A stretch of 37,833 bases of DNA, taken from NCBI GenBank assembly GCA_052055015.1, contig JBQJIT010000061.1; one strand, 5' to 3'. The DNA comes from Malassezia furfur. Lineage: Eukaryota. Below are positions 1-34,977 of this stretch, piece after piece. Positions within the stretch are counted from its first letter, which is position 1; each line of letters starts with the position of its first letter. The notes below the pieces were generated by a model that did no database searches, was not told the DNA's origin, and was given only the letters and a program-made list of their open reading frames with translations. Position numbers and translations under genes: made by a program.

Positions 1-1369
1 TCGGCGTGCGCGTGCTGCTCTCGTGGTGGACGCTGTGGGGCGAGGAGCTCACGACCAGCACCGGGCTTGCGACATCGATGGACCGCATCGAGCTACGTAC
101 GTGCCCAGCTGACACCCAGTGCGCGAAATGCATGCGCTGCTCACGGCGTGGCACGTCGACGCCCGCGCCGTGTGGGCCTCGCTGTCCGTGCACCACTCGC
201 CGCTGCTCCTCGTGCTCGGCGAGCGCTTCATCATGCACCCTGTGTGCTCTGCGGCGCTGTGGATCGCGATGGACGTCGCGGCGGGCCTGGCGCTTGCCGC
301 CGTCGTCCACCGGCGCGCGTCGCAGCAGCCGCAGACGCCGTTCCTGACGCCCGCAGCGGTCGCGGCCTGGTACGTGGCGCGCTAACGCAGTTACTGGCTC
401 AACCCCTACACGATTGCGTGCTGTGCGGCCAAGTCGATGGCGACGCTGCGCGCCCTGCTCGTCGCTGCGTCGGTGCTGTCCGCCGTGCACGGCGCGTCGT
501 GGGGCCTGGCGCTCGCCCACACGCTCGGCACGCTGCTGTTCCTCACGCCCGCGATGCTCACGCCCGCGCTCGTGCTGCTCGGCGCGGACACGCACACCGC
601 GTACGGCCGCTGGCGCGCGCACTTTGGCGTGCGCCGCAGCGATGCGTGGTGGATGTGGACGCGCGCGGTGTGCGTGCGCATGGCGGCGGTGCTGGGCGCC
701 GGGCTGCTGGCGTCGTGGGTGCTTTCGCGCGACGCGAGCGGGCAGTTTGTGCGCAGCGTGTACGGCAGCCGCCTGCTGTTCGACGACCTGGCGCCGTCGT
801 CCGGCCTTGCGTGGTACTTTTTCGTGCAGATGTTTGAGCACTTCCAGTCGTTCTACGTGCTCGTGGTCAACGCCCACATGTGGGCGTACATGGTGCCGCT
901 CACGATCTACTACCGGTACGTGGTGTGCTGACGCAGCTCCGACCCGCTGTTTGCCGTGACGCTGCTGTACGGCATCGTGTGCCTCTTCCAAAACTACCCC
1001 TCGCTGAACGACACGGCGCTGTTTGTCGCGCTGTGGAGCGTGTCGGCGGGGCGCCTCGCCGACTGTACGTGGGCCACTGACACAGACTTGCGGCATCCGA
1101 TGGTCACGACGCTGCTCGTCGCGTACGCGACGCTGCTCATGCCCGCGTTCCACTACCTCTGGCTCTACGCGGGGTCGGCGAACGCCAACTTTTCCTATGC
1201 CGTCAACCTCGTGCATGCGCTCGGCATCGGGAGCCTCGTGCTCGACGCGGCGTGGGCGTGGGGGCACGAGCGCTGGGAGCGCGAGCGGCCGGCGGTGCCT
1301 GCACCGCCGCCCGACACGCCGCCCAAGCAGCCAGGCGCACGGCGCCGGCGTATCGTAGTGCAGCGCTAG
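1..1369 (+). CDS. GAB1: GPI transamidase subunit PIG-U/Gab1, 5'-partial; introns 97-119, 370-390, 916-936, 1065-1085
   Basis: Removing four GTACGT..CTRAC..CAG introns joins the ORF pieces into one hydrophobic protein with PIG-U-type motifs: HHSPLLL, YWLNPYTI, PSSGLAWYFFVQMFEHF, YPSLND, HYLWLYAGSANANFSYA. Stop TAG 1367-1369. The first intron is the least certain. Confidence 0.88.
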
Positions 1370-3459
1370 CGCGGAAACCAGGGGTGCCCGTGCGCCCCTT
1401 GCTCTGGCCGCCAAGGGCCGTGTGGCGCACGCAGCCGGGTATCGAGGCGCGCACACACGTGCGCGAGGTCGTCGAGCGCCGCGGCCGCCTCGTACGGGCA
1501 CAGCTGCGTCCAGGCGTCGCACCGGTACGCGTTCGCCTCGGAGATATGGCGCGCGCATGCAGTGAGGTGCGCATGCACCGCCGCGCGCGGCTTCTCGGGG
1601 CCCATGGAGGCGCGTGCATACGCCGTCCACGCCGTCCACAGTGCGGCGCCCGCGCACGGCGCCACGTCCGGCCGCATGACGTACAGCGACGCGGGCGGCG
1701 ACCACGCAGGGCGGCGCAGCCACTTGACGCGGCGCAGGAACGCGGCCTCGGCACACTCTGGCGCGATGGCGGCGTCCGCGGGGCCGTACAGGAGTAGGTA
1801 CAGCTGCGCATAGGCGGCGCAAAGCTCGGCGTGCGCGGCGCACTCGGCGGCGCAGCGGCGCAGCGGCGCACCCGTGTCGTCCGCGCGCGCCGGCAGCGCA
1901 AGTAGCGCCTGCGCGTTGGCGACGCGCTCGCGGAACGTCTCGGCGAGCAGGTAGTACTGTGCGGCGCGCTCCGTGTCGGCATACAGCGCGAGGTCGAAGC
2001 CCGCACCGATGATGTGTGTCTGCTGCACCAGCGCAAAAAAGCGCACGACGTACGCAAACGTCTGTTCGGAGAACGCGTGCGGCGCCAGTGCGTGGTGGAC
2101 GTCGGTGCCGATCTGCAGCGCCTCGTCCGCGAGGTCGGCCCACGTCGCGTACGCCTTGGAAAAGAGGCGTTTCTGCCGTGCGCGGTTCATAAGCAGCGTC
2201 GAGAGCAGCTGCACAAGCAGGCCCGCAAACCGTTCGAGGAAGCGCTGCGTGTGTGTCGCGACGAGCGAGCCTGCGTACCGCTGCTGCACCCACTCGAGGC
2301 GCACGAGGATGTCCTGCATCGAGACGCCTGCGACGCTGTCGATGGCAGCGAGCGCGACGTGCTCGAGGTCGTGCATCCCACTCGCAGATGTGCGCCCGTC
2401 GCTGATGCACGTCTGCGCCAAGGAGCGCACGAACGGGATCATGGCGTGCCGCTCAAAGGCAAGCGCTGCATGCGTCAGCACGCCGAGCCACGCGAGTACG
2501 TCGTCGGACGATACGATGCGCAGTGCGAGTGGGATGTCGGTGCACAGCACGTCGCGCCACCGCGTCCACGTCGTCGGTGCGTCCTGCGGCGTAAGCGGGC
2601 GCAGCGGAATGTGCGACGAATACGTGCGGCTCAGCGTCACGTCGAACAGGCCCTGCACGGCCGGCGGCCCGTGCGCAAGGAACGGCGACTGGAGCGGCAG
2701 GGGTGTGTCGTTTCCCGGCTCCAGCATCGCCCAGAAGCGCGCGCACCGCTCACGCTGCAGCTCGGCGCGTGTGACGTCCGGCGCGGCGGTGCAGAGCGCC
2801 GCGAGGCACAAAAGCCACGCCTTTTTCATCGCGAGCCGCGTGTGCACGGCACGCGTGCCATCTTCATCGACTTCGGCCGCCGCACGCATTGCCGCGTCCA
2901 GTTGCGCGGCGATGTCGGCGATCTCGACGCCGTCCGGGAGCGCCAGGCCACCGGGGTCGCCGCAAAAGTCCTCGCCGTCCAGCACGTGCTGCCGCAAGAG
3001 CTCGTGGTACTGCAGCGCGCAGCACTTGGCCGTCGCCAGCAGAAATGCAGTGAGGGCTGCGTGCGTCCAGTGGGGCGACGCCGGGGTGCGGTGCACGACG
3101 TAGCGGTGGTAGTACACACAGGTGTACAGTGTCTGACCGAGCGCGGCGCCGTGCATCCACTCGATCTCGAGCGCCAAGAGGCGGTCAAGCACAAAACACA
3201 GCTCGGGTGTACTGAGCTGCGCAGGCACGTCGCGTGGTGCGTGCACGCGGTCGCGCGCATCGATGAGGGCGGGGGGGTAGTCCATGCCGCCGTCCATGGC
3301 CGGGTCCATCACCTCGAGCGCGTGCATGAGCCGCTGGAGCGTGAAGCCCTGGGATGCCACGACCTGCTCGGGCGCGAGGCCTGCGTCAGTGTGCGCCGAC
3401 GTACCGTGCACGGCGTCCCAGAACACGTGCGTCGCGTCGCTGTAGTCTTCCTCGCTCAT
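1366..3459 (-). CDS. MAK10: NatC N-acetyltransferase auxiliary subunit Mak10/NAA35
   Basis: ATG at 3459 (MSEEDYSDAT). Mak10 motifs: FTLQRLMHALEVMDPAMDGG, EWMHGAALGQTLYTCVY, EDF, GFDLALY. No intron is needed. Confidence 0.88.
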   Translation of the reverse strand: MSEEDYSDATHVFWDAVHGTSAHTDAGLAPEQVVASQGFTLQRLMHALEVMDPAMDGGMDYPPALIDARDRVHAPRDVPAQLSTPELCFVLDRLLALEIEWMHGAALGQTLYTCVYYHRYVVHRTPASPHWTHAALTAFLLATAKCCALQYHELLRQHVLDGEDFCGDPGGLALPDGVEIADIAAQLDAAMRAAAEVDEDGTRAVHTRLAMKKAWLLCLAALCTAAPDVTRAELQRERCARFWAMLEPGNDTPLPLQSPFLAHGPPAVQGLFDVTLSRTYSSHIPLRPLTPQDAPTTWTRWRDVLCTDIPLALRIVSSDDVLAWLGVLTHAALAFERHAMIPFVRSLAQTCISDGRTSASGMHDLEHVALAAIDSVAGVSMQDILVRLEWVQQRYAGSLVATHTQRFLERFAGLLVQLLSTLLMNRARQKRLFSKAYATWADLADEALQIGTDVHHALAPHAFSEQTFAYVVRFFALVQQTHIIGAGFDLALYADTERAAQYYLLAETFRERVANAQALLALPARADDTGAPLRRCAAECAAHAELCAAYAQLYLLLYGPADAAIAPECAEAAFLRRVKWLRRPAWSPPASLYVMRPDVAPCAGAALWTAWTAYARASMGPEKPRAAVHAHLTACARHISEANAYRCDAWTQLCPYEAAAALDDLAHVCARLDTRLRAPHGPWRPEQGAHGHPWFPR

Positions 3460-4815: not shown

Positions 4816-7800
4816 CTAGCAGTTCAGTACCGCGTGGCACCGCGTGCACAGCGGCTCAGAGGGCGCGCGCTGGTGCTTCCAGCACCGCGGGCACTTTTCC
4901 AGCGGCGACGGGCGCAGCGATACACCGCCATGCGGCAGTGTGCGCCGCCACGCTGCGGGCTGCGACTCGACGGAGGCCGCATCGGTGTGCAGGCACACGG
5001 AGGCGACCAGCAGGACGTCGGCGAGCTCGTCGAGGTACGGCGTGAGGAACGCCGCCTCGTCGTCCGACACGAGCAGGTTGACGGCGCACTCGGGTGCGGA
5101 CTTGACCAGTCTGGGTGAGTGGGGCGCGACGTACTGCTCGTTCTTGCACTGCGTCAGCAGCGTGTAGACGTCGGAACGGATGCGAAGGATGCGCCGCATG
5201 TCGTCCGCCGCCTGTGGGTCGTGCCACGCCGGGTCTGCGGACTGCCACCCGCGCGTGAACACCGAAGGGACCGTCTCGCCCGGCGCCGGGTCGGCCGTGC
5301 GCCCGTCGCGGTACCAGTGGATGTCCTCGGCGAGGTGCGGCAGGATCGGCGCGAAAAGGCTCGTGAGCGTCGAGAGGATCCGGTCGAGCACCGCGCGGAT
5401 GGCGTCGCTCCGCACGCCGCCCGCGTACAGTGGGTCCTTGGCGACGTCGAGGTACAGCGCCGAGAGCGTCGTGGTGACAAACTCATTGAGGCGGCGCGAG
5501 ACTGGGTCAGCGAAGGCGACGTACCTTTGGCAAAGTCGTACTGGGCGTAGGCGTCGCGGCACGTCGTCTCGAGGACGTAGAGCTCGTGCAGGACGTAGCG
5601 GTCAATCAGCGTGCGCTCCTCGGGGAGGGGAACGCCGCGCGGCACCCCGCCGAGGTTCGCGAGGAGGAAGCGCGCCGAGTTGCGCAGCTTGCGCACCTCG
5701 TCGCTCGCGTGCTTCATGATCAGTGGGCTGATAGGAATGTCGCGCGTGTAGTCCGTCTTGGCGGCCCACCAGCGCAGGACGTCGGTGCCGAGCGGCGCGA
5801 CGCCCTTTTTCGCGTCGCCATACAGGAAGGTGTCGGGGGTGACGACGTTGCCGAGCGACTTGGACATCTTGCGGCCCGCCTCGTCGACGACAAACCCGTG
5901 CGTAAGCAGGTGCGCGTAGGGCGCCGCGCCGTCGCACGTCGCGACGCGCGTCAGCAGCGACGACTGGAACCAGCCGCGGTGCTGATCGGTGCCTTCGATG
6001 TACACGCCTGCGCATGTGCCGGGCGCGCACAGCTCGAGGCCGCGCGCCTTTTGCAGCGTCGCCCACGACGAGCCCGAGTCGAACCAGACGTCGAGCGTGT
6101 CGTGCTTGACGACCCACTGGGCGCCCGGCGTGCGGTAGGCGGGCGCGACAAACGTCTCCGCAGGGAGTGTCCACCACACGTCGGTGGTCTGGTGCTCGGC
6201 AAAGACGCCCAGGATGTGCCGCACATTGTCCTCGGTCAGCAGTGCCTCGCCCGTCTCGGCGTTGTACACGGCCGGGAGCGGCACGCCCCATGCGCGCTGC
6301 CGCGAGATGCACCACTCGGAGCGCCGCCCGACGAGGCTCTTGAGCCGGTTGCGCCCGGTGGCCGGCACAAAGAGCACGTCGTCGAGCGCGCGCTGCGCGG
6401 CAGGGCCGACGTCGGACAGGTCCGCAAACCACTGCGCCGTGGCACGCACGAGCAGCGGCTTCTTGGTGCGCCAGTCGATCGGGTACGAGTGCCGGTACGG
6501 CTGCTCGCCCAGAAGCATGCCGTGCTCGTGCAGGAGACGCACCATCGCTGCGTTCCCGTCGCCGAGCGCCTCCTGCCCGTCGAGCTGCGCGAGCGCCGCC
6601 TGCAGCGCATCCGTCGTGCCCATGCCCTCGGGGACGCGCATGCGCCCGTGGTCGTCGATCGGCGACACCACCCCGCGCTCCGCGAGGCGGCCGGACTGCA
6701 CCCACAGCTCATAGTCCTCGTGGCCGTGCGCGGGCGCCATGTGGACGACACCGGTGCCTGACGAGGTCGTCACGAACGGCGCAGCGACGATCTCGCGCAC
6801 CTCGCCGGGCGCCATCAGCCCAAACGAGTACGCGGCCCCCACGAGGTCCGCGCCCATGCACGTCGCGACGCGCTCCGTAGGGCCGAGGCGCGCACGTTCG
6901 CCGCGCACGGCCATCCCCAGCGGGACGTCGGCGAGCGCCGCCTGCAGCTCGCTGGCGACGAGCAGCAGCTCGCCGTTCTCGCAGCGCACAAGCGCATACT
7001 CTGCGTCGGGGTGCACGGCGAGCGCCATGTTGCCCAGCAGCGACCACGGCGTCGTGGTCCACACCGCGAGGTGCACCGGCTCCTCCACGCCGAGCGTGCG
7101 GGCGAGCGCGTCGTGCGGCTGGAGGCGGAAGCGCAGGTAGGCACTGCGGCTGCGGTGCTTTTCGTCGTACTCGATCTCGGCCTCGGCGAGCGCCGTGTGC
7201 GACGACGGCGACCAGTACACGGGCCGGTAGTGCTGCTCAATGAGGCCCTGGCCGACCATCGTGGCAAAAACCTCGAGCTGCGTCATCTCATACGCGAGGT
7301 CCATCGTGCGGTAGGTGTGCGCCTCGTCCCAGTCGGCCATGATTGCATAGTCCTGGAACGCGGCACGCTGGCCGCGCATCTCGCGCTGTGCGACGCTGCG
7401 CGCCGCCGCGCGGACGTCGGTCGCGCTGAGCGTCTGGCCGCCGGCCTCGGCGACCGCCTTGAGCTCGATCGGCAGGCCGTGGCAGTCCCAGCCGGGCATG
7501 TAGCTACGAGGTGAGCGTGGTCGACGTACTGGACGCGGCGCCCCTGCAGGACGTGGAAGCGCAGAATAAAGTCTTTGAGCATCTTGTTCAGTGCATGGCC
7601 TGTGTCAGAGCGGCGGCGCGCTGCGTACCCATGTGCAGGCTCCCGTTCGCATAGGGCGGCCCGTCGTGCAGCACTAAGTCCGGCTGCCCATCGCCGCCGA
7701 GGTGCGCGCGCTGCCAGCGGTACAGGTCGGTGGTCGTCGCTGGGCGGAAGAGCGGCTCGCGCTCCGTTGCGCGCGCGCGCAGGCTGAAGTGCGTGTGCGG

Positions 7801-7980: not shown

Positions 7981-8807
7981 ATGAGCGATTGGGGTGCGTC
8001 GCCGTGGGTCTGACCAGCAGAGAACGACGACGAAGTGCAGCCTGTGCCGCGCGTCGTGGGCCGCCGTCGGTTCGAGGACGAGGACAAAGAGGAGGAGCCT
8101 GAAGATTGGGACGCGGAGGAGGAGGAGAAGCCCAAGCCCGCGCCGGTGAAGCCCGCACCCAAACCCGCGGCGCGTCCGGGGAAGGCCAAGAAGAACTTTG
8201 GCAAGGGCACCGAGATCAACCGCCGTGGTGTCGCTGGCGAGGAGACGGGTCTTGAGGACTGGGAGGGCCCGATCGATGAGGCGGAGCGCAAGCGCCGGCA
8301 GCGCGAGGCCGAGCTCAAGTCCGACCTGGACAACGCCGCGGCGCTCTTTGGCGGCGTGCAGTTGGACGAGGAAGAGCCTGCGCCCAGCAAGGCGGCGGCG
8401 CCCGCCGCGAGCTCGGAGCTTGCGCAGGCGCAGCCGACCACCAAGGAGCAGTGGGAGAAATATGCCAACGACGTCTACGAGGCGTACGTCAAGCCACAGG
8501 CGAGCCGTGGGGGCTTTGACAAGCATTTCTTCCCGCACTTCCTCACGCTGCTCACCTCCAACGGCCTGCGTGACGTGGACATGCGCAAGGGCTCGACGAA
8601 GCTGCGCGAGGCCGCCGAGGCCAAGGTCAAGGCGGACAAGGAGCTGAAGCGCACGGGCGGCAACAAGACGGTGGCCGCCGCCAAGGCGAAGCCGAAGCAG
8701 GTCGGCACCTCCAGTGCCAAGAACACGTACGTTCTACCTTACTCATTACCAGTTTCGACCTGGAAGCCTACGGAGACGAGGCGCTCGACGATGACGACTT
8801 TATGTAG
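7981..8807 (+). CDS. HCR1: Translation initiation factor eIF3 subunit J; introns 7994-8020, 8727-8752
   Basis: Spliced product starts MSDWENDD, has acidic EDWD patches and SDLDNAAALFG, and ends with the typical eIF3j ..DDDDFM-stop (TAG 8805-8807). Confidence 0.9.
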
Positions 8808-10636: not shown

Positions 10637-11335
10637 CTAAGAGCTCGGCGGCGCGAAAATCTCGCCGGCCCACGCGGGCGTCGGCTGCGCGTACGACCCA
10701 TTCGCCTGGTGGAGCGTGCCGAGCACCTGGTTCTTGCGCGCCTGTGCGGCGACCAGACGCTCGGCCTCGGTGCCGTGCCGCTCGCCATGCCGCGCGTCCT
10801 TCTTGATCGCATAAGCGACCGTCATGGGGCGGTTCACGAGGAACTGGTTGTTGAGCGCCTCGATCGCCGCATCGGACGCCTCGAACGAGTCAAACGACAC
10901 AAAGCCGTGGTTCTTCGACTCGTTCGTCACGCTGTCGCGCACAATTTTGGGGGTGCCTAGGATGGTCCCAAAGGCATGGAAGGTATCGTACAGCATCCGC
11001 TCGTCCACACTCGCGTCCAAATTCCCCACAAACAAGTTGGCACCAATGTCCAAGGGCTGCTTCGTATCTGCAGCCGCCATATTTACACGGATCGGTTTGC
11101 CAAACAGTTTGATGCCGTTCAGGATGAGACACGCGTACTGCGCATCGACCTCGTTGTGGAACTCAGCAAACGCAAAGCCTTGATGTAGTTGTGATACTCG
11201 GTCTTTGGGCATATACACATGTACCACTTGTCCGGCCTGGTACATGAGCTCCCACATGAGCTCGTCCGTGACGCGCTCGTCCAAGTTGCCGACGTAGCAC
11301 GTCGCATCTTGGTTGCGCTCCATCTCGCGCGACAT
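10637..11335 (-). CDS. HSH49: Splicing factor SF3b subunit 4 (two RRMs)
   Basis: [56 protein letters not shown] are SF3B4 signatures. Confidence 0.95.
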
Positions 11336-11404
11336 GGTGGTGCGGTGCGGTGCTGACTAACCGCGTGCTCCAAAATCCTCGTCGGCAGAAATTCTTCGCT
11401 TCTC

Positions 11405-11651
11405 TTTGAACATAATCCACGGAGGTGCGTTGCCCCTCACTCACGCCGCAGACTCAAAGTTCGGGCTCGGCGACTCGTACCGACGTCCGCGTTCCCGTCT
11501 CCAAGACGAAAAACCCACCGGTAGGTGGGCAGGTGTGGGTGCGTCTGGGGCATTTCCTGCCGTCCTGCCGCTCTCCTTCGGGATAGAGCGACGGATGGCA
11601 GTCGAGATCACCCTAGATGTGCCCTCATTTGGGTCGTGTGTTCAGACACTG
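11405..11651 (+). ncRNA. H/ACA box snoRNA, snR37-like (predicted guide for the LSU rRNA Psi2944-equivalent), with a 27-nt intron at 11425-11451
   Basis: Guide hairpin: lower stem GGAG|AC/GTCTCC, pocket TCAAAGTT (11454-11461) and CGTTCCC (11490-11496), upper stem CGGGC/GTCCG. H box AGACGA (11504-11509) lies 14 nt from the pocket top. Further hairpins include a C-UUCG-G capped stem, and ACA is at 11646-11648 plus 3 nt. The pocket pairs with conserved LSU GGGAACG[U]G AGCU. The 5' end is approximate. Confidence 0.78.
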
Positions 11652-12439: not shown

Positions 12440-14221
12440 ATGAATCTCCGCCATATGGTCTACGGTGCACCCGTAGGTTTTCGGACCTACGGTGTGGCCC
12501 TCCTCGCCTCCATCGGTGGCTTTCTTTTCGGATGGTACGTCTTTGTTGTATTTCGTGAACCATGCTAACACACGCGAAGGGACACTGGTCAAATTGCTGA
12601 TCTGATGCTCATGGAGGACTTTATGACGCGTTTTGCGGAATATTCTCCTGATCCGACCGACCCTCTGCGTTTCCCGTACAAGTGGAACATGTGGAAGGAA
12701 GGTCTGATTGTTGGTCTGCTCAGTATCGGTGCCATCGTCGGATCTCTGCTCGGATCGCCCGTTGGTGACATCTTTGGTCGTCGTCATGGTATCTTCTCTG
12801 GGTGCATCATTATGTTTGTTGGTCTGATCATCCAAGTCGCCTCGGACCACTCGTGGATTCAGCTCGCTATCGGCCGTCTTGTGACAGGTGTTGCAATTGG
12901 CTGGCTCAGTGCGACGGTGCCGATCTACCAGTCTGAAACTGTGCCGCGCCAAGTTCGTGGTGCCTTGGTGGGATCGTTCCAGCTGTTTATTACCCTCGGC
13001 ATTCTGCTGTCGTACCTGACCTGCTATGGTACGCGCTACTACAGCAGCGGTGGCGAGCTCACTACGCCGGCATGGAACAACAAGGAGCCGACCTCTCGTG
13101 GCGAACCCCCTTCATCGGCACAATGGCGAGTACCTATTGGTTTAGGCTTTGCTTGGACCTTGATTCTAGCCGTCGGTATTTGGTTCTGCCCTGAAAGCCC
13201 GCGTTGGCTCGGCAAGCAGGAGCGTTACAACGAGATGCTTACCGTGCTGGCCAAGATGCGTGGTGTTGAAGAGGACGAGCCCTATGTGATGACCGAGTAT
13301 TATGACATCAAGCAGGAAGTCCTTGCTGAGCTCGAGCTTGAGAAGAAGAATCTCTTCGACTGCTTCCGCCTTGAGAACAAGACCTTGTACCGCACTTTGC
13401 TCGGTATGCTCATCCAGTCGGGCCAGCAATTGACCGGTGCCAACTACTTCTTCTACTACGGTGCCACCATCTTCCAGTCTGTCGGTATTTCCGACTCTTA
13501 CATTACCCAAATTATTCTCGGCGCGGTGAACACGGGTACGACGTTCTTGGGTCTGTGGGCCATGGACCGGTTTGGTCGTCGCTTTTGTCTGCTGCTGGGT
13601 GCCGCGTGGATGGTCATGTGGCTGATTATCTTCGCCACGGCAGGTGTTGTGGGTAACCCGATCGCGTTCGACTTGCCGGGCTCGCCGCCGAACCCGGACC
13701 ACTCGGATGACTATAACAAGTCGATTGGTACGCTGATGATCTGCTCTGCCTGCTTCTACATTCTGGCATTTGCCAGTACGTGGGGCCCGGGTGCTTGGAT
13801 TACCATCTCCGAGTTCTGTGCGCCGGAGACGCGTGGAATGCAGTTCTCGCTCGCGACGATGTGCAACTGGATTTGGAACTTCTGCATCGGTTTCTTCACG
13901 CCCCCCATCACCGGTGACATCAACTTCTACTACGGCTACATTTTCGTTGGCTGCAATACCTTCAACTTCCTGCTCATCTACTTCTGCCTTTATGAGACGG
14001 CCAACCTTACGCTGGAGGCCGTCAACACGATGTACCTTGACCCCAGCGTCAAACCTTGGAACTCGACCAAATGGGTTCCGGAAGGCTATACCTCGCGTCG
14101 CGGCATTAAGCAAGACATTGATGCGAAGGTGCGTGAAGTGGGTGGAGATGCGCGTCTGCCGGATCCGGAGATGATGAACAAGTCGACCGGGCTCCGTCTC
14201 CAAGATCGGGACCTGGAATAA
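12440..14221 (+). CDS. MFS sugar porter (hexose transporter family); intron 12535-12579
   Basis: Spliced N-terminus ASIGGFLFGWDTG; motifs DIFGRR, GRLVTG, PIYQSE..RG, PESPRWL, QQLTGANYFFYYG, DRFGRR, ETANLTLE. Confidence 0.93.
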
Positions 14222-14489
14222 GCCAATATCCAGTTTCCCTCAAAACTGTCGCGTAAAAAATCTAAATGGGTTTCTGTGCACATACTTTGAACAATTTTAC
14301 AGGCAAGCCTGCTTCGCGCATCCACACAATCTATGCATGATGGCCATTGATCTTCTGTATTGTTCATATACGTATGTAATGCCAGCATGTGCTTGCCTTT
14401 CTCTGTCGCGGATAGGGTGCAGTGTAAAGAGTGACGACACTAAGAGTCTTCTACGGATCGCCCAACGGTGGCGGAATATTAAGGGAAAA

Positions 14490-16372
14490 TTAGCGAGCAT
14501 CCTCTTCGATGCTTCGATTTTGCGTCATCTCATCGTACTCAAGTCCAGAGGTGGGCCCATTGGGAACAGGCATAGCAGTGTGACGAGCCGAGTCGAGCCG
14601 CGCACACGTCTTGCCGTCACGCGAAAGGGGTGGCACATATCCAGTGGCCGGTCGCCGTGACGCAGCAGTGTGCCGCAACGAGTCATACTCGGCCGCGTAG
14701 GGGATCCCTGAACTCCCCAACGAGAAGTTTGAGGCGAGATTGCGATGTCGCATTGGAAGATAGCGCGTAACGGGGGGATGAGTTGGAGGCAAGGCTTCAG
14801 TAGAAGCACTTTTCAGCATGGGATGGACAGGCAAACCGGATGCGGTCGAGGAGGCCAGCTCAGTCGATCCGGGTTCGCCAAAATACGTCGAACGCGACTT
14901 TTTCAACGGACGCTCGCCAAAGCTGTCCCGAGCCGGGATGAGCGGGTCAACAGCGGTGGCCTCGGGCGGTACCGATGCGTCGACGGGTGTCTGTCGGTTA
15001 GTAATGTGCCCCGTGGACGTAAAAACATACCGAGTAGGCGCTGGATGGAGCCGTATACCCTTCCTTCTTGCCTGGCAAAGCATGCTTGGGCAAAGGAAGC
15101 GATGGGCGAGACTGGGATGCAAGCGTAGGCGACGCATACCCCACCGAATGGCGCTTGGACTGGGGGTTTGCCCAGCGCATTTCGGCAGACATGGTCGGGC
15201 TGTACCTACCGTTGCCAAACGAGGGCGAATAGGAGGCACGGGGGGAGTGGGGCATGTAAAATGCATGATAGTTGAGATCGTGGGAGGCGGTAGGGTAGGA
15301 GGACGGACCGCCTGTCAAAGGCATAGAGGCACGACGCTGCTGGTCGTGCAATGGAAACGGTGGCCGGTCCGGCACGATCGACACAGATCGCGACGTATAC
15401 AAACGCGAGTCAGGGGTAAGGCCCGGCGGTCGCAACCTGGTGGAGATTTCGGAAAGCGATGGAAGGGCCGAAGGAGAACGCGAATCGCTCCACGTGCCCT
15501 CCGAAGCCCCTCTCCCATACATGCCTGAGGGTGAAGTCAACGGCGCATGGGTAGGGCTCGCTGCTGCACCAAAAACGGGGCGGTTGAGCGATTGGATCGG
15601 GGCAGAGGAGCTGGGTGCCGAATGAGGGGAAAACGAAGCAGGCTGAATCGAGCGCGGCACAGACTTGGTATCCAAACGAGGAAGAGTTGTCGGTTTGAGC
15701 AGTTTTGATGGAGTGCCATTCTTGGACAGCGTTGCTTGCCGCCCTTCGTTGTGATCATCGCTCTCTGCCGAGGCAGGCTGGCTGAGAAGGGAGCTAACAG
15801 CCACCGAACCCCCCGGCGATGCCAGGACCGGCTTGGCGGATTCCTTGGCCGTGCCCTTCTTCTCGTCTGAAGTAGCCCTAGGCTCGGGCTTAGCCCCGTC
15901 TGGGATGACGACACGGGCAAATGTCCGCTGGTTCTTTGCGGCCGAAGCAGCAAGGTTGGAGTGTAGAACAGTGAGCTGGCGCAGGATCTCTTCGTTGCGC
16001 TCTGGCGTGTCAGAGTGCACCGTCTGACAATGCTGTCGCAAGTTGTCGAGACGGGAAAAAGCCTTTTGGCAGTGACACTGGAAAGGACGTTCTCCTGTGT
16101 GCTTGCTGCGGTGTTAGTGGCGAGACCCTGCAGAAAACATACCGAACATGGCGAGCCAAGTGTTCGCTGCGTGTGAACACCATACGACAGTCGCCGAACC
16201 CAGAGCATTGGAAGACGGTGGTGCTTCCGGACCCTGAATTTGCGGGTGCCCCGGACGAGCCTTTGGCATCGGAGCTCCGCGCGGCCTTGGCCGGCTTAGT
16301 ATTCACTGGGTTGTCCCCACCGTTCGCAGCCCAGGAACGCGAGTCCTGCTTAACAGTGGAAGCGGACTGCAT
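14490..16372 (-). CDS. C2H2 zinc-finger transcription factor, Usv1/Rgm1/NsdC-like; introns 16106-16142, 14991-15030
   Basis: Splicing gives [54 protein letters not shown] followed by a Ser/Pro-rich tail. Both introns start GTATGT and have CTAAC branch sites. Confidence 0.85.
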
Positions 16373-19594: not shown

Positions 19595-22500
19595 ATGGTC
19601 GTGAGCGGTGCGAAGGCAAAGCCCCACCTGACGCTGCGGAGCGGCATGCAGGTGGGCATCAATGGTGCGTAATGTGCGCCTGACGCAGACTTTGTATACA
19701 TTGCGCTGCCGTGGGCGGTGGGCATGGGCGAGCCGTACGTCGTCGCGCGCGTGATGGACTTTGTCGCGCCCGCGGGCGAGAGTGGCGCGGGTCAGCAGGT
19801 GCGCGCGAACATCTTTCTGCGGATGCGCGACCTGACGCATCGTGCCAACAACGACTCGCGCCTGCTCGTCGCGACGATGCATGCGGAATTATACCCCGTC
19901 GAGGCGATCCGCGGCAAGTGCCGCGTGAAGCACCGCGACCTGATCGGCAACGGCGCCCCGCCGGAACTCGCCGTGTGGAAGCGCAAGGACGACCACTTTT
20001 ACTACCAGCAGCTGTACGACCGTTACATTCACCGCTTCTACGACGTGATCCCAACATGGAAGGTGAAGAATGCGCCGGCAGCGGTGCTCGAAACGCTGCG
20101 CGAAAAGTACTCGTTCATCGTCGCGGAGCCGGCCATCTCGGCAGATCTGTGCGACGCGCTGCGCGGATGCGCCGTGTGCCACGAGTGGGCGCCCAGCGCC
20201 GAGTCGGTGCGCTGCGATACGTGCCGCAAGTACTTCCACATGCACTGCGTCTCGCCGCCGCTGCAGTCCAAGCCCGCCAAGGGGTACAGCTGGTCGTGTG
20301 CGCCGTGTACAAAGCAGCACGATGCGCTTGTGGAAGAGCAGGGCGTCGGCGGTGGTGGCCTGCATTCCGACACCGCGCCGCCCGCCCGCGCGCCGCGGTC
20401 ACAGGCAGCGGCAAGTCGGCGCACGAGCCGCGCGCACCTGTTTGGCGACGTGCCGGCGCCCGCGAGCGACGCGGCGCTGCACACCGCGATGGATCGCGAG
20501 GGACTGCGCTGTTTCCAGGGCTGGCCGTACCGCTACTTTGGCGAGTACACCTCGGCGATGGACGTGCTCGATGCCCACGACTCCATCTACCCCCGCGCCG
20601 TGACGCGGTGTGGGCCCAAGTTCCAGATGCCCGTGCCCAGCTGGGAGGAGCAGCACGAGCTCGCGCCGGGCGAGGCGCGGCGCACCGAAGCGGAGCCGCC
20701 GCAGGACGCCGCGTCGCCGTCGCCGAGCAAGTCGGCGACGCGCATGCGGCGCAAGAGCCAAACCAAAAAAGCGCGGCGCGACGCCGCTAGTGCGATGGAG
20801 GTCGATGACGAGTCCACGCCGACGCCCACCGACACCGTGTACGAGCGCGGAGGGCCCGACACGGTGCACTGTCTGTACCTTCCCCCCGCCGAGCCCAGCG
20901 TCGCCGACGGTGTGGAGACGTACCTGCAGGCGGTGCGTGCGCCGCGCGCGCATTTGCCGCGCACCGACGTCTCGTACATGGACCGCGCACTCGAGCTACT
21001 GTGTGCGCACCACTTTGACACGCACGCGGCCGCCGAGCAGTTTGCGCAGAGCAAGGACGCCGACTTTGGCTACTTCCAGCTGACGTCCAAGGAGAACGAG
21101 AGTCTGGGCAAGGCGATGATGGAGCACGGCGCTGAGATGAGCGCGCTGAAGCGTGCGCTGCCAACCCGAACGCCCGCCGAGATCGTACGCAGCTTGTATG
21201 CGTGGCAGACGTACGTACCCACCCACTGACCCAGCCACCAGCTCGGCGAACGGTGGCGCGCACAGGCGAGTGCACGCGCCGACGGCCGGCGCGGCACGCC
21301 GGCCGACGCCAAACCGCTGCGCGACGTGTCGCCCGCGCGCTCCATCCTGAGCACCGACGAGCTCGACGAGATCCACGACGCGAACCCGGCAGCCAAGCTG
21401 CACTGTGCGTTCTGCAACGTGGCCACCGAGCCGTTCTGGTACCGCGGCTTTATCAACTGGACGGGACGCATGCTGTGTGTGTACTGTGGGCAGCTTTGGC
21501 GCAAGTACGCCGCCGAGACCGCGAGTGTGTTCATCACCGACGCGAAGCGCAAAGCCGCGCAGGAGCACGGCGGCGAGGAGCGCGGGCTCGGTGTGCTGGT
21601 GCCCGTCCACGTCAAGTACACGCCGCGCGCCGCTGCGCCGCACGCCACGACGCTGCAGCCCGGGTGGGCGTCGCCGGCGCCCCCGCCCGTGCCCGAAATC
21701 GGCAAGTGTGTACTGTGCCGCCGGCTGGACCCCAAGCGGCGCCTGCGCAGCTGTGCGCAGTGCGGCATGGCGGCACACCAGGGCTGCATCGGCATCACCG
21801 ACGCCGACATGGATGCCAAAGAGTGGCTGTGCGACGTGTGCCGCAACGACCGCGACCCGAACGTGGCGCTGCTGCCGCACTGTGTGCTGTGCGACGAGGC
21901 AGCAACCGACCGTATGCCCGCCGCGGCGCGCGGCGCGCGTGCCGGCGACGACGACAGCAAGGCAGGGCTGCTGGGCGCACTGGACGTGTACAAGCCGACC
22001 GAGTGCAACAACTGGGCGCACCTCGTGTGTGCGATATGGACGCCCGAGGTGCTGTTTGCGGACGCCAACACGATGCAGCCCGTCGAGGGCGCGAGCAGCT
22101 TACCGCCGTGGCGCTACGACTCGCCCTGTGCGCTGTGCAAGCAGGTGCGCGGCGCGGTCGTGACGTGCGCGGAGCCGACGTGCCGCACGCGCTTCCACGT
22201 CGCGTGCGCCTTCCAGGCGCAGCCGTCGTGCACGCTGGCGTTTGAAATCTTCCCGGTGAAGACGTCGCGGCGCGACTCGGTGCAGACGCTCACGTTCAAG
22301 TCGGAGACGGGCCACATGTGCGCGCAGATCTGGTGCAAAGAGCACCGCGGCGTCGCCAAGTCCAACACTACCTACGACTTCTTTGAGAGCGACGCCAAGC
22401 TCGGGCTCACGGCGCTGCAGGCGTACGCACGCACGCACAAGCAGGTGGCGAACACGTCGCACCGCAACTCGGCCGTCGTCGAATCGTCGCACGCGCTGCT

Positions 22501-24591: not shown

Positions 24592-25345
24592 TTACTTGAT
24601 GACAAGCACGGGGACGGGCGAGTGGCTCACCAGGTACGACGAAACGGTGCCGCTGGTCAGGCCACGCTTCCAGCCAAGGTTGCGCTTGCCACTGGTTGAT
24701 GTGTCAGTATGTCATCCCACAAATTGCAAAATACGTACATCAGCACAAGGTCCACCTTGTGGTAGGTAATGACCTTGAGGAGCGAGGCACGAGCGTCACC
24801 GTGCAGCACGTGCATAGTAACGTTGAAGCCCTTCTCCTTCAGCTTGGCCTTGTAGGGCATCATGCGCTCGACAGCCTGCTGACGCAGCTGGCGGAGCAGC
24901 TCGTTCTGCTTCTTGGTATCGATCGACAGAGGACCCGACACCCAGGGGCCACCCAGCACGTTGGCGGGGAGCACCGTGGTCAAGAAGATGTGGCTGCCAG
25001 GAGCGATCGTCTTGTTGTTGAGCAGGTAGTCGAACGCCTTGTCACCGGCCTCAGTGCCGTCAAGGGCGAGCAGAACCTTGCTCTGGGACTCAGGCAGACG
25101 CTCACCGGGCACACCGACAATCTGCTGCTGGCGGGCCTCCGAGGGGATCGACGCCTTGTCGAAGGGGTTGCTCGACTCCAGCACAGGAGTCTGGGCAATC
25201 TGGTGGACCCTGAAACACGGTTAGAATCGGCTTTTTCTTCACGAGCGAATACGTACTGGCCACCGGGCGTCACATCGCCGCTGGTCGAGGTCTGGTGCTG
25301 CACACCGAAGAAGCCCTGGTCCGACGTGTTCGTAGGAGCAGACAT
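24592..25345 (-). CDS. Universal stress protein (UspA domain); introns 25210-25256, 24692-24738
   Basis: KVLLALDGTEAGDKAF and HGDARASL; after splicing, DLVLIGKRNLG..SGTVSSYLVSHSPVPVLVIK-stop, the typical USP C-terminus. Confidence 0.9.
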
Positions 25346-28600: not shown

Positions 28601-30069
28601 GACGCTCCTTGGCGATGCGCTCCACGCGCTTTTGTTCCTCGCGCTCGGTGTCCGCGTGGAACTTGAGCACAAGGCGGCCGATGCGGCGCGCCTGGTCGGA
28701 CGCCTTGTTGTGCGCCGCGACCAGGTCCTTGCCGTGCGCACAGATCATCGACAGGTAGTCGGTGTGCCGCTGCTTGGCCTTGCGCTCACGCTCCGTGCGC
28801 TGCTTGCGCTCAAGCTGCTCGGTGACGCGCGCGTCACGCAGCGCCTGCTTCCGGACGCGGCGGAACGCCGAGCGGTCCAGGCCCAGCGTCGTAGCAAGCT
28901 TCATGCTCGCTACCACCTTCTCCCGGAGCTGCTGCTGCCGCTCCAGCAGATGCAGCGACTTGAGCTCAATCAGCGCGCGCACTTTGGCATTGTGTCCGCG
29001 CGCCACGTCGCCGTTCAGCTGTGAAGAGAGCGGCGCATCGTGTGCATGGGCGAGCGCATCGCTAGTCGGCACTTGCGCCATGGTCGACGGGAAGGACTCT
29101 AGCTCACGGATCCGCTGCTGGATCCGCGCCTGGATGAACCGGTCGCGCTCCTCAAGCAAGAGCCGCGCGTCGATCCCGGCAGGCAGCAGACTCGGGATGA
29201 GCAGCCGCTGCTGCATCGACGCCAGGTCGTCGCCCGTCTTGGTCGCAGGCTTGGCAAGCAGCGTAAAAGGGTGCAGGTAGGCATTGTATGGGTACACAGG
29301 GCTCGTCGGGACATCCTTGGGCGTCTCGGCGCGCGGCGCATCGCGCGCGGGCGTCGATTCCTTGGCGTCCGTGGGCGCGGGACTCGGCTTGACCGCCTCA
29401 GGGCCGTTGGCAGCCAGCAGCGCCGCGTGCGAGTCGGCGGCCGCGTCGGCGACCTTGGCCGTGACATGGGACGCGGCGCTGGCGTCGCCGGCCTTGGTAT
29501 CTGTGAGTGTGCTCTGCAGCTGGCCCGACACGGGCTGGTTGCGCGAGAGCTGCTTGAACGCGCCGATCTGGTCCCGGAGCGTGGTGAGTTGCTCGTTGGA
29601 GAGCGCCGGACCGGCGCCGCCAGGGAACGCGACGTTGGCGCCGGGCGCGTTTGCCGGTGCGCTAGCAGGTGCATCGCCTGTCTGCGTTGTCGGCGTGTTC
29701 TTCGCCGCCGACTTTTGCTGCGACGCGAGCTGCTGCATCCGGAGTTGCTGCATATACTGGAATGCCTTGAGCGTCTGCACGAGGGTGGCGTATTCCTGGT
29801 TGGACTGCTCGGTGGCGCCGTTCGCCTTGAGCTGCTGCATGCGCTGCAGGTTAGTGGACAAGGGCCGTGCGACAACGTACCGTAACGATCTGCTGCAGTC
29901 GCTCCTTGGTCATACCGGCGAGCTGACGCTGCGCCTGGATGGGCAACTGGCTCAGTAGGCTAGTGATTCCTTGCGCGCCCGGCGCATTCTCGCCAGTGGG
30001 CGGGACGTGGGGAGTGGGGGGACCCCTAGGTTCTTGGGCCCCCGTCGCTTGCGAAGTTGGGACCTCCAT
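25629..30069 (-). CDS. STH1: SWI/SNF-RSC ATPase (Sth1/Snf21/Snf2 type: QLQ, HSA, SNF2 helicase, SnAC, bromodomain); intron 29844-29880
   Basis: LKADDEEAYLKLID, NGILADEMGLGKT, DEGH, LTGTPLQNNL, STRAGGLGLNLQ, QAQDRAHRIGQ, and bromodomain YPDYH..NARTYN. STH1 versus SNF2 orthology is not resolved. Confidence 0.92.
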
Positions 30070-32108: not shown

Positions 32109-32782
32109 TGATCATGGACATCGTCGCCATCGTCGCCGCGCTCGTCCTCGGCATCCTCCGAATCCGAGTCTGAGTCCGAGTCTGAGTCCACGTCGAACTC
32201 GAGCATCTCATATGCCTCACGCTCACGCCCAAGACGCTCCTCGACTTCGCCATCATCCCAAATATAGATGCGGTCGTTGACGTGCGACGTTGCAAACAAG
32301 TTGCTCAAATTCCATGGACGATGTGAGTCAAGCACATGCAGTATACAGTTTTGCGGGAGGGGTATCGAGGTGGGCAGGGGCATCAGTGAGCCCAGGTTGA
32401 GGAAGACGAGTGTATGGAGCTGCAATTAGTACCACGCGTCGAGCGCGACGCGACGCGTCGCGTCACGTACCTCAAGATGACCCTCGACGTCCTCGGCAAG
32501 GACTTGTTGCAGGGAACGGTATCCATTCACTGGAGCCACGCGGAAAGCAATCTCGTCGTCGGCCAACAGACGCGTAAAGATGCGTGCGGCCGCCAGCGAA
32601 TCCACCTGTGGGGTGGTCAGGATTAACACCGTCGCACCCCCTGGCGCCTCTGCGCCCGGCTCGCCCAGAATGCGCCTCCGTGCGGTACGCAGTATCTGGC
32701 GGTATGCACCGGCATACTCCAGCGTGCCTGACGCGCGTATGCGTGCATCGCCCGTCTCCCGCGGGCGACAGACGAGCACCAT
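30449..32782 (-). CDS. CDC45: DNA replication initiation factor Cdc45; intron 32420-32470
   Basis: VDSLAAARIF, HVLDSHRPWNLSNLF, an acidic insertion, LWYAILGLT, RHWSLETSM, LLAKMG, NRFGLAF. Confidence 0.93.
32056..32104 (-). repeat. (GAC)n microsatellite encoding a poly-Asp tract in the Cdc45 acidic loop
   Basis: Run of GTC triplets on the + strand, giving DDDDDDDDEDGDDDD. Confidence 0.8.
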
Positions 32783-32850: not shown

Positions 32851-34286
32851 GTGTCACGAGCAGGTTCTTGACGTTGGGCAGCGTGTTGCGTAGGTCCAGC
32901 ATGGGGACTCCGTAGGCGTGCATGAGCTGCTCAATGTCCTTGTTGAGCAGGAACACGCCATATTCGTAGCGATACGGCTCCACGCCTTTGCCGTAGAGGG
33001 CAAACGTTCGTGGCCCGGACATGACGCTGATAGGGTCTTGGACGACGGCGCGGCTGCCGACCGGGCGGAGCGGATAGGGCAGTGGGATATGGAGGTAGGC
33101 ACTGGCCAAGACGACAATCTGGGCGACGTATGCCAGTGCAGCTGCACTTTCGTCCAAGGCCGACTTGTGCACCAGGGCGCCTGACCGCTCGTCAGTAGAT
33201 GCGACGCCGTTTGGTAGTGCGAGTCCGGCAATCGAATAGAGTAGATCGCGTGCACTCTCGAGCTGGATGGGGTAGATAAACTCGAGGTCACGCAGAAGGC
33301 GCACGCGGTGCTGCTGGATGGACTGTTCGAGTTCCTCGGCGCGTTTCCTGATGTTAGACAGCGTAGCGACGTACGTGGTCTCAGTGGACGCTTCTTGTGC
33401 CCGTGTGTGGCGCTGCCGGATATCTTGGAGCAGGGCAGCGCCGCGTTCCAAGTTGTCGCGGCGTGTCTGCAATGCCGAGCGTGCTTCAACGACCGCGGCG
33501 CGCGCTGGATAAGATGGGACACGTACCGCGAGACACTTCCTCCTTGCGCAGCTGGACGCGGTGGCGCAAATCCTTGAGTCGTTGTCGAGATTCGAGCTGA
33601 TGGCGCTGCGTTGGTGGTCTGAGACGTACCTTTTCAGCCAGGCCATTGTCGGTGAGGGCATGACCGCACCGCCGCTGCAGTGTATGCAGAGCGTCATGTA
33701 GCGCGTTGAGGTCTCCTTGGACATGCACCACGCTCAGGGCTTGGGCAAGCGTGCAGCTCCTCTGCATGTGGGTCTCCACCATTGAGAGCAGCATCGCACG
33801 GCGGCCGGCTTCCTCGGCGTCGGGCTCGTGTGATGCATCGTTGTGGACTGCGACGTACTCCAACTGGGTATCTGCGCGATTCTGGCGCAAGCCGAGGTAC
33901 ACCAGGTTTGGCTGCGGCTCATACACCGTGCCGAGTTCGGTGCCGAGCGACGGGAGCGTACGCAGGTCAATAAGGACCTCCCAGAGACACGACCAGTGTT
34001 GGCCTGTGCGTACATAGAGTCCCACGAGCAGTTCGGGCGTGTGCGACCATGCCGAGGGTGCAAAGTCGTGTGCGGGCCGGATCGGCGGGCTGGTGTATTC
34101 CCCCCACGACGCCTGTGCGGTGGGTGCGGGCCGTGTGATATAGAACGGGGGCTCGTTGGGCCTGCGTAGGGTCACGAAGCAGGCAGATACGCTCGCCGTG
34201 TCGGATGCCGACGATGCCGTAGACGCCTGTGCGTTGCGCACATGCACCGCCGCGAGATCGGCAAGGCGTCGGTGCGCGGCGGCCAT
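32837..34286 (-). CDS. Vps38/UVRAG (Atg14-family) PI3K complex subunit; introns 33606-33629, 33505-33526, 33348-33374
   Basis: C2-like N-terminus and coiled coil, then LEFIYPI..YSIAGLALP..AAALAYVAQIV..YLHIPLPYPL..GSRA..DPIS..YEYGVFLLNKDIEQL..DLRNTLPN. Confidence 0.82.
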
Positions 34287-34336: not shown

Positions 34337-34977
34337 ATGACCACGGTGCGGCCGTTTGCGGCGAGCGACCTGTTTCATTTCAACAATGTGAACATGGACC
34401 ACTGGACGGAGACGTACAGCAACGGCTTTTACCTGAACTACCTTGCGCAGTGGCCGGACATGATGCTGACGGCGTGTGCGGCGCATTCCGGCAAAATGAT
34501 GGGTTATGTGCTGGGCAAGACCGAGGGCCGCGCGCCCAAGGGCCGCGCCTCGGCAGAGGAGCTCACGCTACACGGGCACGTCACCGCGGTCACGGTCGCG
34601 CCCGAGTTCCGGCGGCTTGGCGTGGCGCAGATGCTGATGGACTTTTTCGAGCTGGTCTCGGAGCGTGTGTACGACGCGTACTTCGTGGATCTGTTTGTGC
34701 GTCCGTCGAATGCGAAAGCGATCCAGATGTACGAGAAGCGCGGCTACTCGGTGTACCGCCGCGTGCATGCCTACTACCGCGGCGGGTCGCCCGACATGCT
34801 CGAGGACGGGCTGGGTACGTTGTGTGCTGACGCAGACATGCGCAAGCCGCTGCCGCGCGACGTGCAGCGCCAAACGGTGCGCAAGAACGGCCACCGCGTG
34901 GTGGTGCGGCCCGAGTACGTGTGTGTGGCTGATGCAGAGCGACCCTTTTCCCACCCATGGTGCGCCCCGGTGTATAG
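34337..34977 (+). CDS. NAT3: NatB catalytic subunit Nat3/NAA20; introns 34815-34835, 34915-34937
   Basis: MTTVRPF..DLFHFNNVNMDHWTETY, HGHVTAVTVAPEFRRLG, FVDLFVRPSN, GYSVYRRV. Splicing restores EDGLDMRKPL. Confidence 0.93.

Follow-up and report, generated by a model that had tools for sequence, protein, structure and literature searches.

Introns of 21 nucleotides in Malassezia furfur: probable spliceosomal introns of minimal architecture

The 21-nt introns of PIG-U and NAT3

We examined very short introns in a stretch of 37,833 nucleotides (nt) from the yeast Malassezia furfur (GenBank assembly GCA_052055015.1, contig JBQJIT010000061.1), hereafter the window, by which the whole stretch is meant. 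The window has a GC content of 0.54-0.71, measured over 2-kb windows, and holds about 19 closely packed genes as judged from Pfam matches and coding potential. Two of these genes, PIG-U and NAT3, contain introns of exactly 21 nt. PIG-U encodes a subunit of the glycosylphosphatidylinositol (GPI) transamidase and its closest named protein is from M. brasiliensis (87% identity), while the closest named protein to the window NAT3 is from M. obtusa (also 87%). The features of these two genes are as follows.

1..1369, plus strand: PIG-U (GPI transamidase subunit), with its 5' end cut by the window; five exons
97..119, plus strand: PIG-U intron of 23 nt, GTACGT-N6-CTGAC-N3-CAG; the frame changes from 0 to 2 across the intron
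370..390, plus strand: PIG-U intron of 21 nt, GTACGTGGCGCGCTAACGCAG, with an in-frame TAA
916..936, plus strand: PIG-U intron of 21 nt, GTACGTGGTGTGCTGACGCAG, with an in-frame TGA
1065..1085, plus strand: PIG-U intron of 21 nt, GTACGTGGGCCACTGACACAG, without an in-frame stop
34815..34835, plus strand: NAT3/NAA20 intron of 21 nt, GTACGTTGTGTGCTGACGCAG, without an in-frame stop
34915..34937, plus strand: NAT3 intron of 23 nt, branch CTGAT

All four of the 21-nt introns fit the single pattern GTACGT-N6-CTRAC-N-CAG, in which the adenosine of CTRAC is position 16 and lies 5 nt before the 3' end. An initial annotation of this DNA had claimed that three PIG-U introns and one NAT3 intron share exactly this length, pattern and branch position, and the sequence read at these coordinates bears the claim out. 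The introns at 370-390 and 916-936 carry in-frame TAA and TGA codons, so that their removal is required, as had also been proposed, for the reading frame to stay open. Removal of the NAT3 intron was likewise said to restore a conserved motif, and the joint indeed reads EDGL-DMRK where human NAA20 has EDAY-DMRK.

The strongest evidence for these introns comes from relatives in which they are missing. A metagenome scan using a PIG-U protein alignment identified seven Malassezia-like loci (L001-L007, 52-57% identity) that keep the gene order of the window, with NAA35 downstream of PIG-U on the opposite strand. In L002 and L005, and in L003 over its covered part, PIG-U is one uninterrupted open reading frame (ORF), and these ORFs can be read as natural cDNAs for the window gene. 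Aligned with them, the spliced PIG-U shows no gap at any of the three 21-nt sites, whereas the unspliced reading shows exact inserts of 7 residues, two of which hold stop codons. Splicing also creates residues at the joints that agree with the relatives (VAA-C-Y/F, YR-S/T-D, and ADY-LR): the 370-390 joint forms a C codon present in the relatives too, and a conserved Y, that of ADYLR, arises at the 1065-1085 joint. Because the intronless orthologues supply these joints, the intron reading is secure. More generally, the PIG-U exons match Pfam PF06728 in profile order (positions 51-107, 128-290, and 295-378 of 378, for exons 2-4/5), and the product, once spliced, can be aligned over its full length with PIG-U proteins of Malassezia and with the intronless loci.

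Intron presence varies at identical sites, both between L001 and L002/L003/L005 (in PIG-U and NAA35) and among NAT3 relatives. The PIG-U gene of L001 has introns of 23 nt at the 97-119 site, 22 nt at 370-390, and 23 nt at 1065-1085, while L002 and L005 read through the 97-119 site without an intron. At 916-936 there is no intron in L001, L002, L003, or L005, all of which align gap-free. The same holds for NAA35, whose 24-nt intron at 3381-3404 is matched in L001 by a 23-nt intron in the same position and in the intronless L002 and L005 by a gap of exactly 8 residues; alignment of the NAA35 N-terminus with solved structures begins only past this intron. Among distant homologs, yeast GAB1 (9ub7_B) and human PIGU (7w72_U) show a gap of 7-8 residues at 1065-1085, and human NAA20 (7stx_A) shows a 7-residue gap at the NAT3 intron 34815-34835.

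For NAT3, the 34815-34835 insert is absent from 16 of 30 aligned relatives, including all nine from outside Malassezia. Six others carry inserts of 7, 7, 8, 9, 10, and 11 residues, each corresponding to a multiple of three nucleotides, and in the other eight the sequence that follows EDG[YF]G is shorter, shifted in frame, or divergent. These 14 relatives with inserts or altered tails fit an intron read through at this site. The joint of the second NAT3 intron, 34915-34937, gives RPE-AT, similar to relatives ending in QPEAT, QPEDT, or QPENT, and read-through forms show PEYV instead.

Public protein records appear to preserve the same introns in translated form. The NCBI record of M. brasiliensis PIG-U (P0002) contains two 7-residue inserts and P0001 contains three, such that the 21-nt introns of PIG-U recur as exact 7-residue read-throughs in two relatives. 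The record of M. obtusa NAT3 (P0131) combines a 7-residue insert with a read-through of the second intron, and other NAT3 entries leave the frame after the donor site. Back-translation suggests that the first residues of the inserts correspond to GTACGT or GTATGT and that the last residues fit an ending in CAG. Given such donor- and acceptor-like ends on 7-residue inserts, the 21-nt length has been kept in at least two relatives. As judged from these alignments, the elements at 370-390, 916-936, 1065-1085, and 34815-34835 are confirmed as genuine introns, and they are close to the smallest on record for any organism.

Intron census and splice signals

When codon and intron log-odds were combined in a dynamic-programming gene model, 24 introns were called, spread over 12 of 19 gene regions, and the resulting ORFs were complete. 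The model failed on two low-GC genes (the sugar-transporter gene HXT and the gene of ORF 15001-16113) because its codon table came from GC-rich genes, and three introns in low-GC genes (12535-12579, 16106-16142, and 14991-15030) were placed by hand from motif score and ORF boundaries. A gene model with ad hoc scoring produced spurious introns of 81, 141, and 17 nt and missed real ones, and the log-odds version was used instead. The resulting 27 introns have a median length of 24 nt, with individual lengths of 21 (four introns), 22, 23 (three), 24 (six), 26 (three), 27, 29, 37 (two), 40, 45, 47 (two), and 51 nt (two). This independent census reproduces the proportion given in the initial annotation, with 19 of the 27 measuring 21-29 nt and none shorter. 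Those 19 are referred to below as the short class and the eight of 37-51 nt as the long class. Frame, an in-frame stop, or comparison with relatives requires 14 of the 19 short introns. In addition to those of PIG-U and NAT3, the introns are as follows.

3381..3404, minus strand: intron of 24 nt, NAA35/Mak10; without an in-frame stop, 25.2 bits; the 8-residue gap of the relatives
5111..5134, minus strand: probable intron of 24 nt, isoleucyl-tRNA synthetase (IleRS); branch CTCAC, without an in-frame stop, 22.1 bits
5502..5524, minus strand: intron of 23 nt, IleRS; joins the tRNA-synt_1 ORF to the Anticodon_1 ORF with a frame change
7504..7529, minus strand: intron of 26 nt, IleRS; branch CTCAC, 3' TAG, frame change, joint RRVHYMPGWDC
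7600..7628, minus strand: intron of 29 nt, IleRS; 5' GTACGC, frame change, joint between HMG and HALNK
7994..8017, plus strand: probable intron of 24 nt, eIF3j; follows a 13-nt first exon, 21.3 bits, placed by motif and start codon
8727..8752, plus strand: probable intron of 26 nt, eIF3j 3' end; branch ambiguous, 21.3 bits, placed by motif
12535..12579, plus strand: intron of 45 nt, 5' end of the sugar-transporter gene; 22.6 bits, Sugar_tr ORF opens at 12569, hand-placed
14991..15030, minus strand: intron of 40 nt, low-GC gene of ORF 15001-16113; 23.9 bits, bounds a 371-residue ORF, hand-placed
16106..16142, minus strand: intron of 37 nt, same low-GC gene; 23.9 bits, bounds the 371-residue ORF, hand-placed
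19665..19688, plus strand: intron of 24 nt, BAH-PHD gene; in-frame TAA
21211..21234, plus strand: intron of 24 nt, BAH-PHD gene; holds the only stop separating two same-frame ORFs of about 520 residues
22922..22972, plus strand: intron of 51 nt, RPL3; gene model
24692..24738, minus strand: intron of 47 nt, Usp-domain gene; gene model
25210..25256, minus strand: intron of 47 nt, Usp-domain gene; gene model
29844..29880, minus strand: intron of 37 nt, SNF2 gene; gene model
32420..32470, minus strand: intron of 51 nt, CDC45; joins two ORFs matching Pfam CDC45 (profile 1-49 and 52-623)
33348..33374, minus strand: probable intron of 27 nt, ATG14-like gene; without an in-frame stop, 25.6 bits, placed by motif
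33505..33526, minus strand: intron of 22 nt, ATG14-like gene; branch CTTAT, sole candidate giving the needed frame change
33606..33629, minus strand: probable intron of 24 nt, ATG14-like gene; branch CCAAC at -5, 19.7 bits, placed by motif
35715..35740, minus strand: intron of 26 nt, GET3/ArsA; frame change inside the ArsA_ATPase gene

Several of these placements are informed by the surrounding coding sequence. Read through 5111-5134, the IleRS protein is about 6-8 residues longer at that point than S. aureus IleRS (1ffy_A), which lends moderate support to the intron. In eIF3j, the 7994-8017 intron contains an in-frame TGA provided that the ATG at 7981 is the start, and the frame change at 8727-8752 opens an acidic C-terminus ending in DDFM. 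The 33505-33526 intron of the ATG14-like gene links ORFs 33489-34379 and 32840-33733.

All 27 modelled introns begin with GT and end with AG. The 5' site is GTACGT in 21 of 27, with GTGCGT, GTATGT, GTGTGT, or GTACGC in the others, and a CTRAY branch motif is present in 22, the remaining five having CTCAC, CTTAT, CTTAC, or CCAAC variants. In the short class, GTACGT is found in 16 of 19 introns, CTGAC in 11, and a 3' CAG in 18, and the putative branch A lies 5 nt from the 3' end in 12 (13 when the CCAAC of 33606-33629 is counted). The spacer between the 5' hexamer and the branch motif is 6 nt in five of the 19 and reaches up to 14 nt in others, such that nearly all of the length variation of the class lies in this spacer, and 21 nt is the sum 6 + 6 + 4 + 5 taken from the 5' end. 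The long class differs in having mostly CTAAC (6 of 8) and branch-to-end distances of 6-12 nt, as well as lower GC content (0.51 vs 0.62 in the short class, with flanks of 0.58 vs 0.66). These long introns sit in lower-GC surroundings, as in RPL3, the Usp-domain gene, HXT, and the gene at 15-16 kb.

The short signal is far more frequent than expected by chance. An untrained pattern, GTACGT-N(2-14)-CTRAY-N(1-5)-AG, gave 11 matches in the window, compared with a mean of 0.07 and a largest count of 1 in 100 dinucleotide shuffles. Every one of the 11 matches falls on the coding strand of a gene, and spacers of 2-5 nt, although permitted by the pattern, did not occur. A position-weight scan with a threshold of at least 19 bits and a length of at most 30 nt, in which lengths of 12-20 nt were included, gave 22 matches against a mean of 2.83 and a maximum of 9 in 200 resamplings, and none of these matches was shorter than 21 nt. 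Modelled introns account for 19 of the 22 matches; of the remaining three, one reflects an overlapping alternative donor (93-119), one an AG inside the RPL3 intron, and one a motif on the minus strand at 19426-19455. This last motif is a perfect intron-like signal (GTACGT...CTAACAG, 30 nt, 25.6 bits) in an intergenic position, within a 250-nt gap between plus-strand genes for a cyclin-like and a BAH-PHD protein, where no minus-strand gene is evident.

Chance matches to the untrained pattern at 0.07 per 37.8 kb (both strands) extrapolate to about 15-20 in a haploid Malassezia genome of 7-9 Mb (PMC7426719), and signals this rare are nearly able to define introns on their own. Lengths that are multiples of three are over-represented among the short introns in this small sample (11 of 19, binomial p = 0.024), and six of these 11 lack an in-frame stop, namely 1065-1085, 34815-34835, 3381-3404, 5111-5134, 33606-33629, and 33348-33374. 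The opposite trend is seen in Paramecium, in which stop-free introns of such lengths are depleted.

Minimal architecture and competing explanations

Taken together, these observations suggest that the short elements are ordinary U2-type GT-AG spliceosomal introns cut down to a minimal architecture, a reading to which we assign a probability of roughly 0.88. The spliceosomal nature of the introns, already proposed in the initial annotation, is borne out by their signals and the strand bias of these, by their precise excision, and by the relatives. Each intron has a near-invariant GTACGT, then a spacer (at least 6 nt in introns with a clear branch), a branch motif that is mostly CTGAC, and usually an ending of the form C-N-CAG. 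Recognition would most likely proceed by intron definition from these three high-information signals alone, with neither a polypyrimidine tract nor intronic sequence upstream of the branch being needed. We infer both the use of the CTRAC adenosine as the branch point and the efficiency of splicing.

The geometry of the 21-nt introns has consequences for any model of their recognition. The 5' end and the branch A are 15 nt apart, and the branch A and the 3' end 5 nt, which is too little to hold a polypyrimidine tract; recognition models for this class must therefore do without one. The contact region of SF3a/b extends about 20 nt upstream of the branch, more than a 21-nt intron can provide, and would have to reach into the 5' exon. 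The earlier arithmetic on this point, which had left almost no space for either element, is confirmed. In budding yeast and in human, an AG so near the branch tends to be used poorly.

The initial annotation had also proposed a size floor near 21 nt, which fits the data seen: in this small sample, four introns lie at the minimum of 21 nt in the window, no signal was found at 12-20 nt, and the minimum in L001 is 22 nt. We infer that deletion pressure on a compact genome could have brought the introns down to a physical floor at 21 nt. In the activated spliceosome, about 50 angstroms separate the branch A from the 5' splice site, and it is possible that a 6-nt linker together with a short branch helix is about the least that can span this distance, just as a 3-nt loop may be about the least that allows the 3' AG to dock beside the branch A. 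We tentatively extend this to the hypothesis, which we regard as possible but rather unlikely, that GC-rich Malassezia splice at the true geometric minimum for a conventional, SF3b-containing fungal spliceosome, with a 6-nt linker from the 5' hexamer to the branch helix and a 3-nt loop from the branch A to the 3' AG, without a polypyrimidine tract and possibly without U2AF.

Several points weigh against the interpretation of minimal spliceosomal introns with a floor at 21 nt. Five of the 19 short introns (5111-5134, 7994-8017, 8727-8752, 33606-33629, and 33348-33374) were placed mainly by motif, branch points were assigned by motif throughout, and the ambiguous 8727-8752 could have a spacer of 5 nt. 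The figure from the 19-bit scan is partly circular because the matrix was trained on the introns that it scores, and at 14 bits the position-weight scan of the window is unenriched (218 matches vs a mean of 166.6 and a maximum of 223); evidence was drawn only from the scan at 19 bits or more and from the untrained pattern. The sample comprises 37.8 kb and one locus of 5.5 kb, so shorter introns may occur elsewhere in the genome. Lastly, stop-free introns whose length is a multiple of three may be partially retained, giving an insert of 7 or 8 residues.

A stronger form of this last point, which we consider improbable, is that the stop-free elements are translated at least part of the time, either as lineage-specific inserts or as retained-intron isoforms. 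The frame does stay open in them, their lengths are over-represented as described above, and four database proteins (P0002 of M. brasiliensis PIG-U, P0131 of M. obtusa NAT3, P0001, and P0130) are recorded with them. These records, however, are the output of gene callers rather than protein evidence, and the elements possess the complete GTACGT...CTRAC.CAG signal, coincide exactly with positions at which the intronless relatives and the yeast and human proteins have nothing, and share their build with sister introns that hold stop codons. It is much less probable still that splicing relies on different donors or acceptors close by and removes longer introns, such as 886-936 or 34815-34867. Alternative GT...AG pairs do reach 18-20 bits, but their excision would remove residues that are conserved in the intronless relatives, where the alignment gaps are exactly 7 or 8 residues and no more. 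The least probable explanation, in our view nearly negligible, is a non-spliceosomal origin, such as errors in the assembly, lesions of pseudogenes, or structure-dependent excision by an Ire1/HAC1-type route or by the tRNA-splicing endonuclease. Only the unusual length speaks for it, whereas the same signal recurs on the coding strand of 12 different genes, excision precisely restores conserved residues, and related species have introns at the same sites. In addition, neither a shared stem-loop nor an unusually stable fold is present in the four 21-nt introns and their flanking sequence (z of -0.22 to +1.97 vs shuffles), which argues against a structure-guided route outside the spliceosome.

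A further possibility concerns the machinery rather than the introns. A specially adapted spliceosome, in which U2AF, SF1, SF3a/b, or RES components are lost or truncated or the small nuclear RNAs (snRNAs) are altered, could set a hard floor near 21 nt; an ordinary fungal spliceosome acting on very strong signals would then not suffice. This would accommodate a geometry that has space neither for a polypyrimidine tract nor for intronic contacts upstream of the branch, as well as the accumulation of lengths at 21 nt with none below. The window contains a single spliceosome component with which this can be compared.

10638..11335, minus strand: SF3B4 (SAP49/Hsh49), 232 amino acids (aa), intronless

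SF3B4, a U2 small nuclear ribonucleoprotein component that contacts the pre-mRNA near the branch, is 99% identical here to the M. brasiliensis 'Spliceosome-associated protein 49' and stops soon after its two RNA recognition motifs (RRMs). The length is 232 aa in M. brasiliensis and 230 aa in M. sympodialis, and this Malassezia range of 230-232 aa, with the C-terminal tail missing, compares with 272-391 aa in most named proteins of other Ustilaginomycotina, in keeping with an adapted machinery. However, SF3B4 is similarly short in Testicularia cyperi (234 aa) and Tilletia horrida (208 aa) and in S. cerevisiae, where Hsh49 (213 aa) serves long introns, so the missing tail says little. Conservation of both RRMs is strong (E 7e-78 against residues 7-210 of 424 in human SF3B4 5z56_4), which would be weak evidence at most for a conventional core. 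An Rfam scan and a tRNA scan of the window gave no match, and no snRNA lies in the window. Finally, the eight introns of 37-51 nt use the same 5' and branch signals as the short class, which indicates that one machinery serves both. On balance, we consider a specially adapted spliceosome doubtful.

Published short introns, annotation errors, and neighboring features

Compared with canonical fungal introns (GTRNGT, CTRAY, and YAG), the minimal introns described here contain the same three signals in the same order, and the eight longer introns of the window are of the canonical kind. Introns of similar size, 18-21 nt, occur in the nucleomorph of Bigelowiella natans, and the likening of the window introns to nucleomorph minima in the initial annotation is fair in this respect. 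The nucleomorph, however, is the relict nucleus of an endosymbiont with a reduced gene set, whereas Malassezia is a free-living and culturable yeast.

Short introns are already on record for the genus. Table 2 of PMC5389616 gives 5350 introns with a mean of 30 bp for the curated M. sympodialis annotation, 99% of which are supported by RNA-seq, and Fig. S8 of the same paper is listed as their length distribution. The median in M. restricta is 30 bp (PMC9241646, Table 1), and minimum intron lengths of 20 and 15 were used by annotators of that species (PMC6473144). A review credits Malassezia genes with 'very short introns' (PMC7426719). A mean or median near 30 bp implies that many introns are below 30 nt, and the class as such is therefore already documented. 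The genus, the compact genome, and the order of size are the same here, but the published values, in the portions of these sources available to us, are means or medians only, compared with a median of 24 nt in the window. Literature searches on Malassezia introns returned, within the accessible portions of the sources, no description of a 21-nt class or floor, of the fixed GTACGT-N6-CTRAC-N-CAG build, or of a 5-nt distance from branch to end.

Comparable lengths have been described in other lineages. Introns average 25 nt in Paramecium (PMC8997360) and measure 15-16 nt in Stentor (PMC13644364). Ciliate introns are likewise of the GT-AG type, shorter than 30 nt, and removed by the spliceosome, so such lengths are workable, and the Stentor values mean that 21 nt is not a universal limit. 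In contrast to the AT-rich ciliate genomes, the short introns here occur at 60-70% GC and have an explicit, yeast-like branch motif. The same source gives a median of 22 bp for myxozoan introns and also lists dicyemids and Microsporidia as having short ones (PMC13644364). These are independent cases of about 22 nt in compact or fast-evolving genomes, relative to which the motifs of the window are unusually strong. In its introduction, that 2026 paper on the shortest animal introns names ciliates, Microsporidia, and dicyemids as the known exceptions below 30 bp, without a single occurrence of Malassezia (PMC13644364). A survey of fungal introns similarly covers length extremes without Malassezia in its available portion (PMC8476143). 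Short Malassezia introns thus appear to be on record yet largely overlooked, both by gene annotators and by the splicing literature. Since ultra-short GT-AG introns were already implicit for the genus, what is new here is modest: the geometry is fixed, there is an apparent floor, and errors of annotation result.

These errors follow from the build of the introns, as ORF-based gene callers, and many model-based ones, do not see introns this short when they lack a stop and their length is a multiple of three. The read-through inserts described above look like a systematic mis-annotation of ultra-short introns in public Malassezia proteins, and because deposited proteins carry them, the proteomes used for allergen, drug-target, and comparative work hold systematic small errors. 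If the introns are indeed at a geometric minimum, dozens to hundreds of stop-free introns of this kind would be mis-translated in public Malassezia proteomes, and Malassezia, which is culturable and transformable, would be the first fungal model for minimal-intron splicing. More generally, the window provides a concrete and well-supported anatomy for some of the shortest fungal introns, and Malassezia is an under-used but experimentally tractable system for studying what sets the minimum length of an intron.

Other Malassezia-like loci differ in their intron content. L001 (5516 nt, 62% GC), from another Malassezia-like species, has about ten intron signals of 22-25 nt and none shorter. The loci L002 and L003 (50-54% GC) have almost no intron signals, and their PIG-U and NAA35 genes are intronless. 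Across these loci, intron number, and perhaps intron length, seems to track lineage or GC content.

Within the window, the stretch from 11000 to 17600 is lower in GC (0.50-0.61 in 300-nt windows vs 0.65-0.71 in most other parts). It contains about 1.1 kb without coding signal, the sugar-transporter gene, and a gene without a Pfam match (ORF 15001-16113, minus strand) that differs from its neighbors in codon usage; the introns in this stretch are of the longer CTAAC type. Compactness is also evident between convergent genes. The stop codons of PIG-U (TAG 1367-1369, plus strand) and NAA35 (TAG 1366-1368, minus strand) overlap within GCTAGC, so that any 3' untranslated region must extend into the neighboring gene, and the remaining convergent pairs end about 10-60 nt apart (4805/4817, 8806/8835, and 34977/35033).

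Two of the listed introns have further features of their own. The first intron of eIF3j ends in a tandem acceptor, CAGCAG (8015-8020, plus strand), with a choice between 24 and 27 nt that differs by one codon. In IleRS, the 7600-7628 intron falls inside the class I tRNA-synthetase signature, with HMG on one side and H on the other. The IleRS itself has an N-terminal extension and is bacterial-like, which suggests that it is probably the mitochondrial enzyme.

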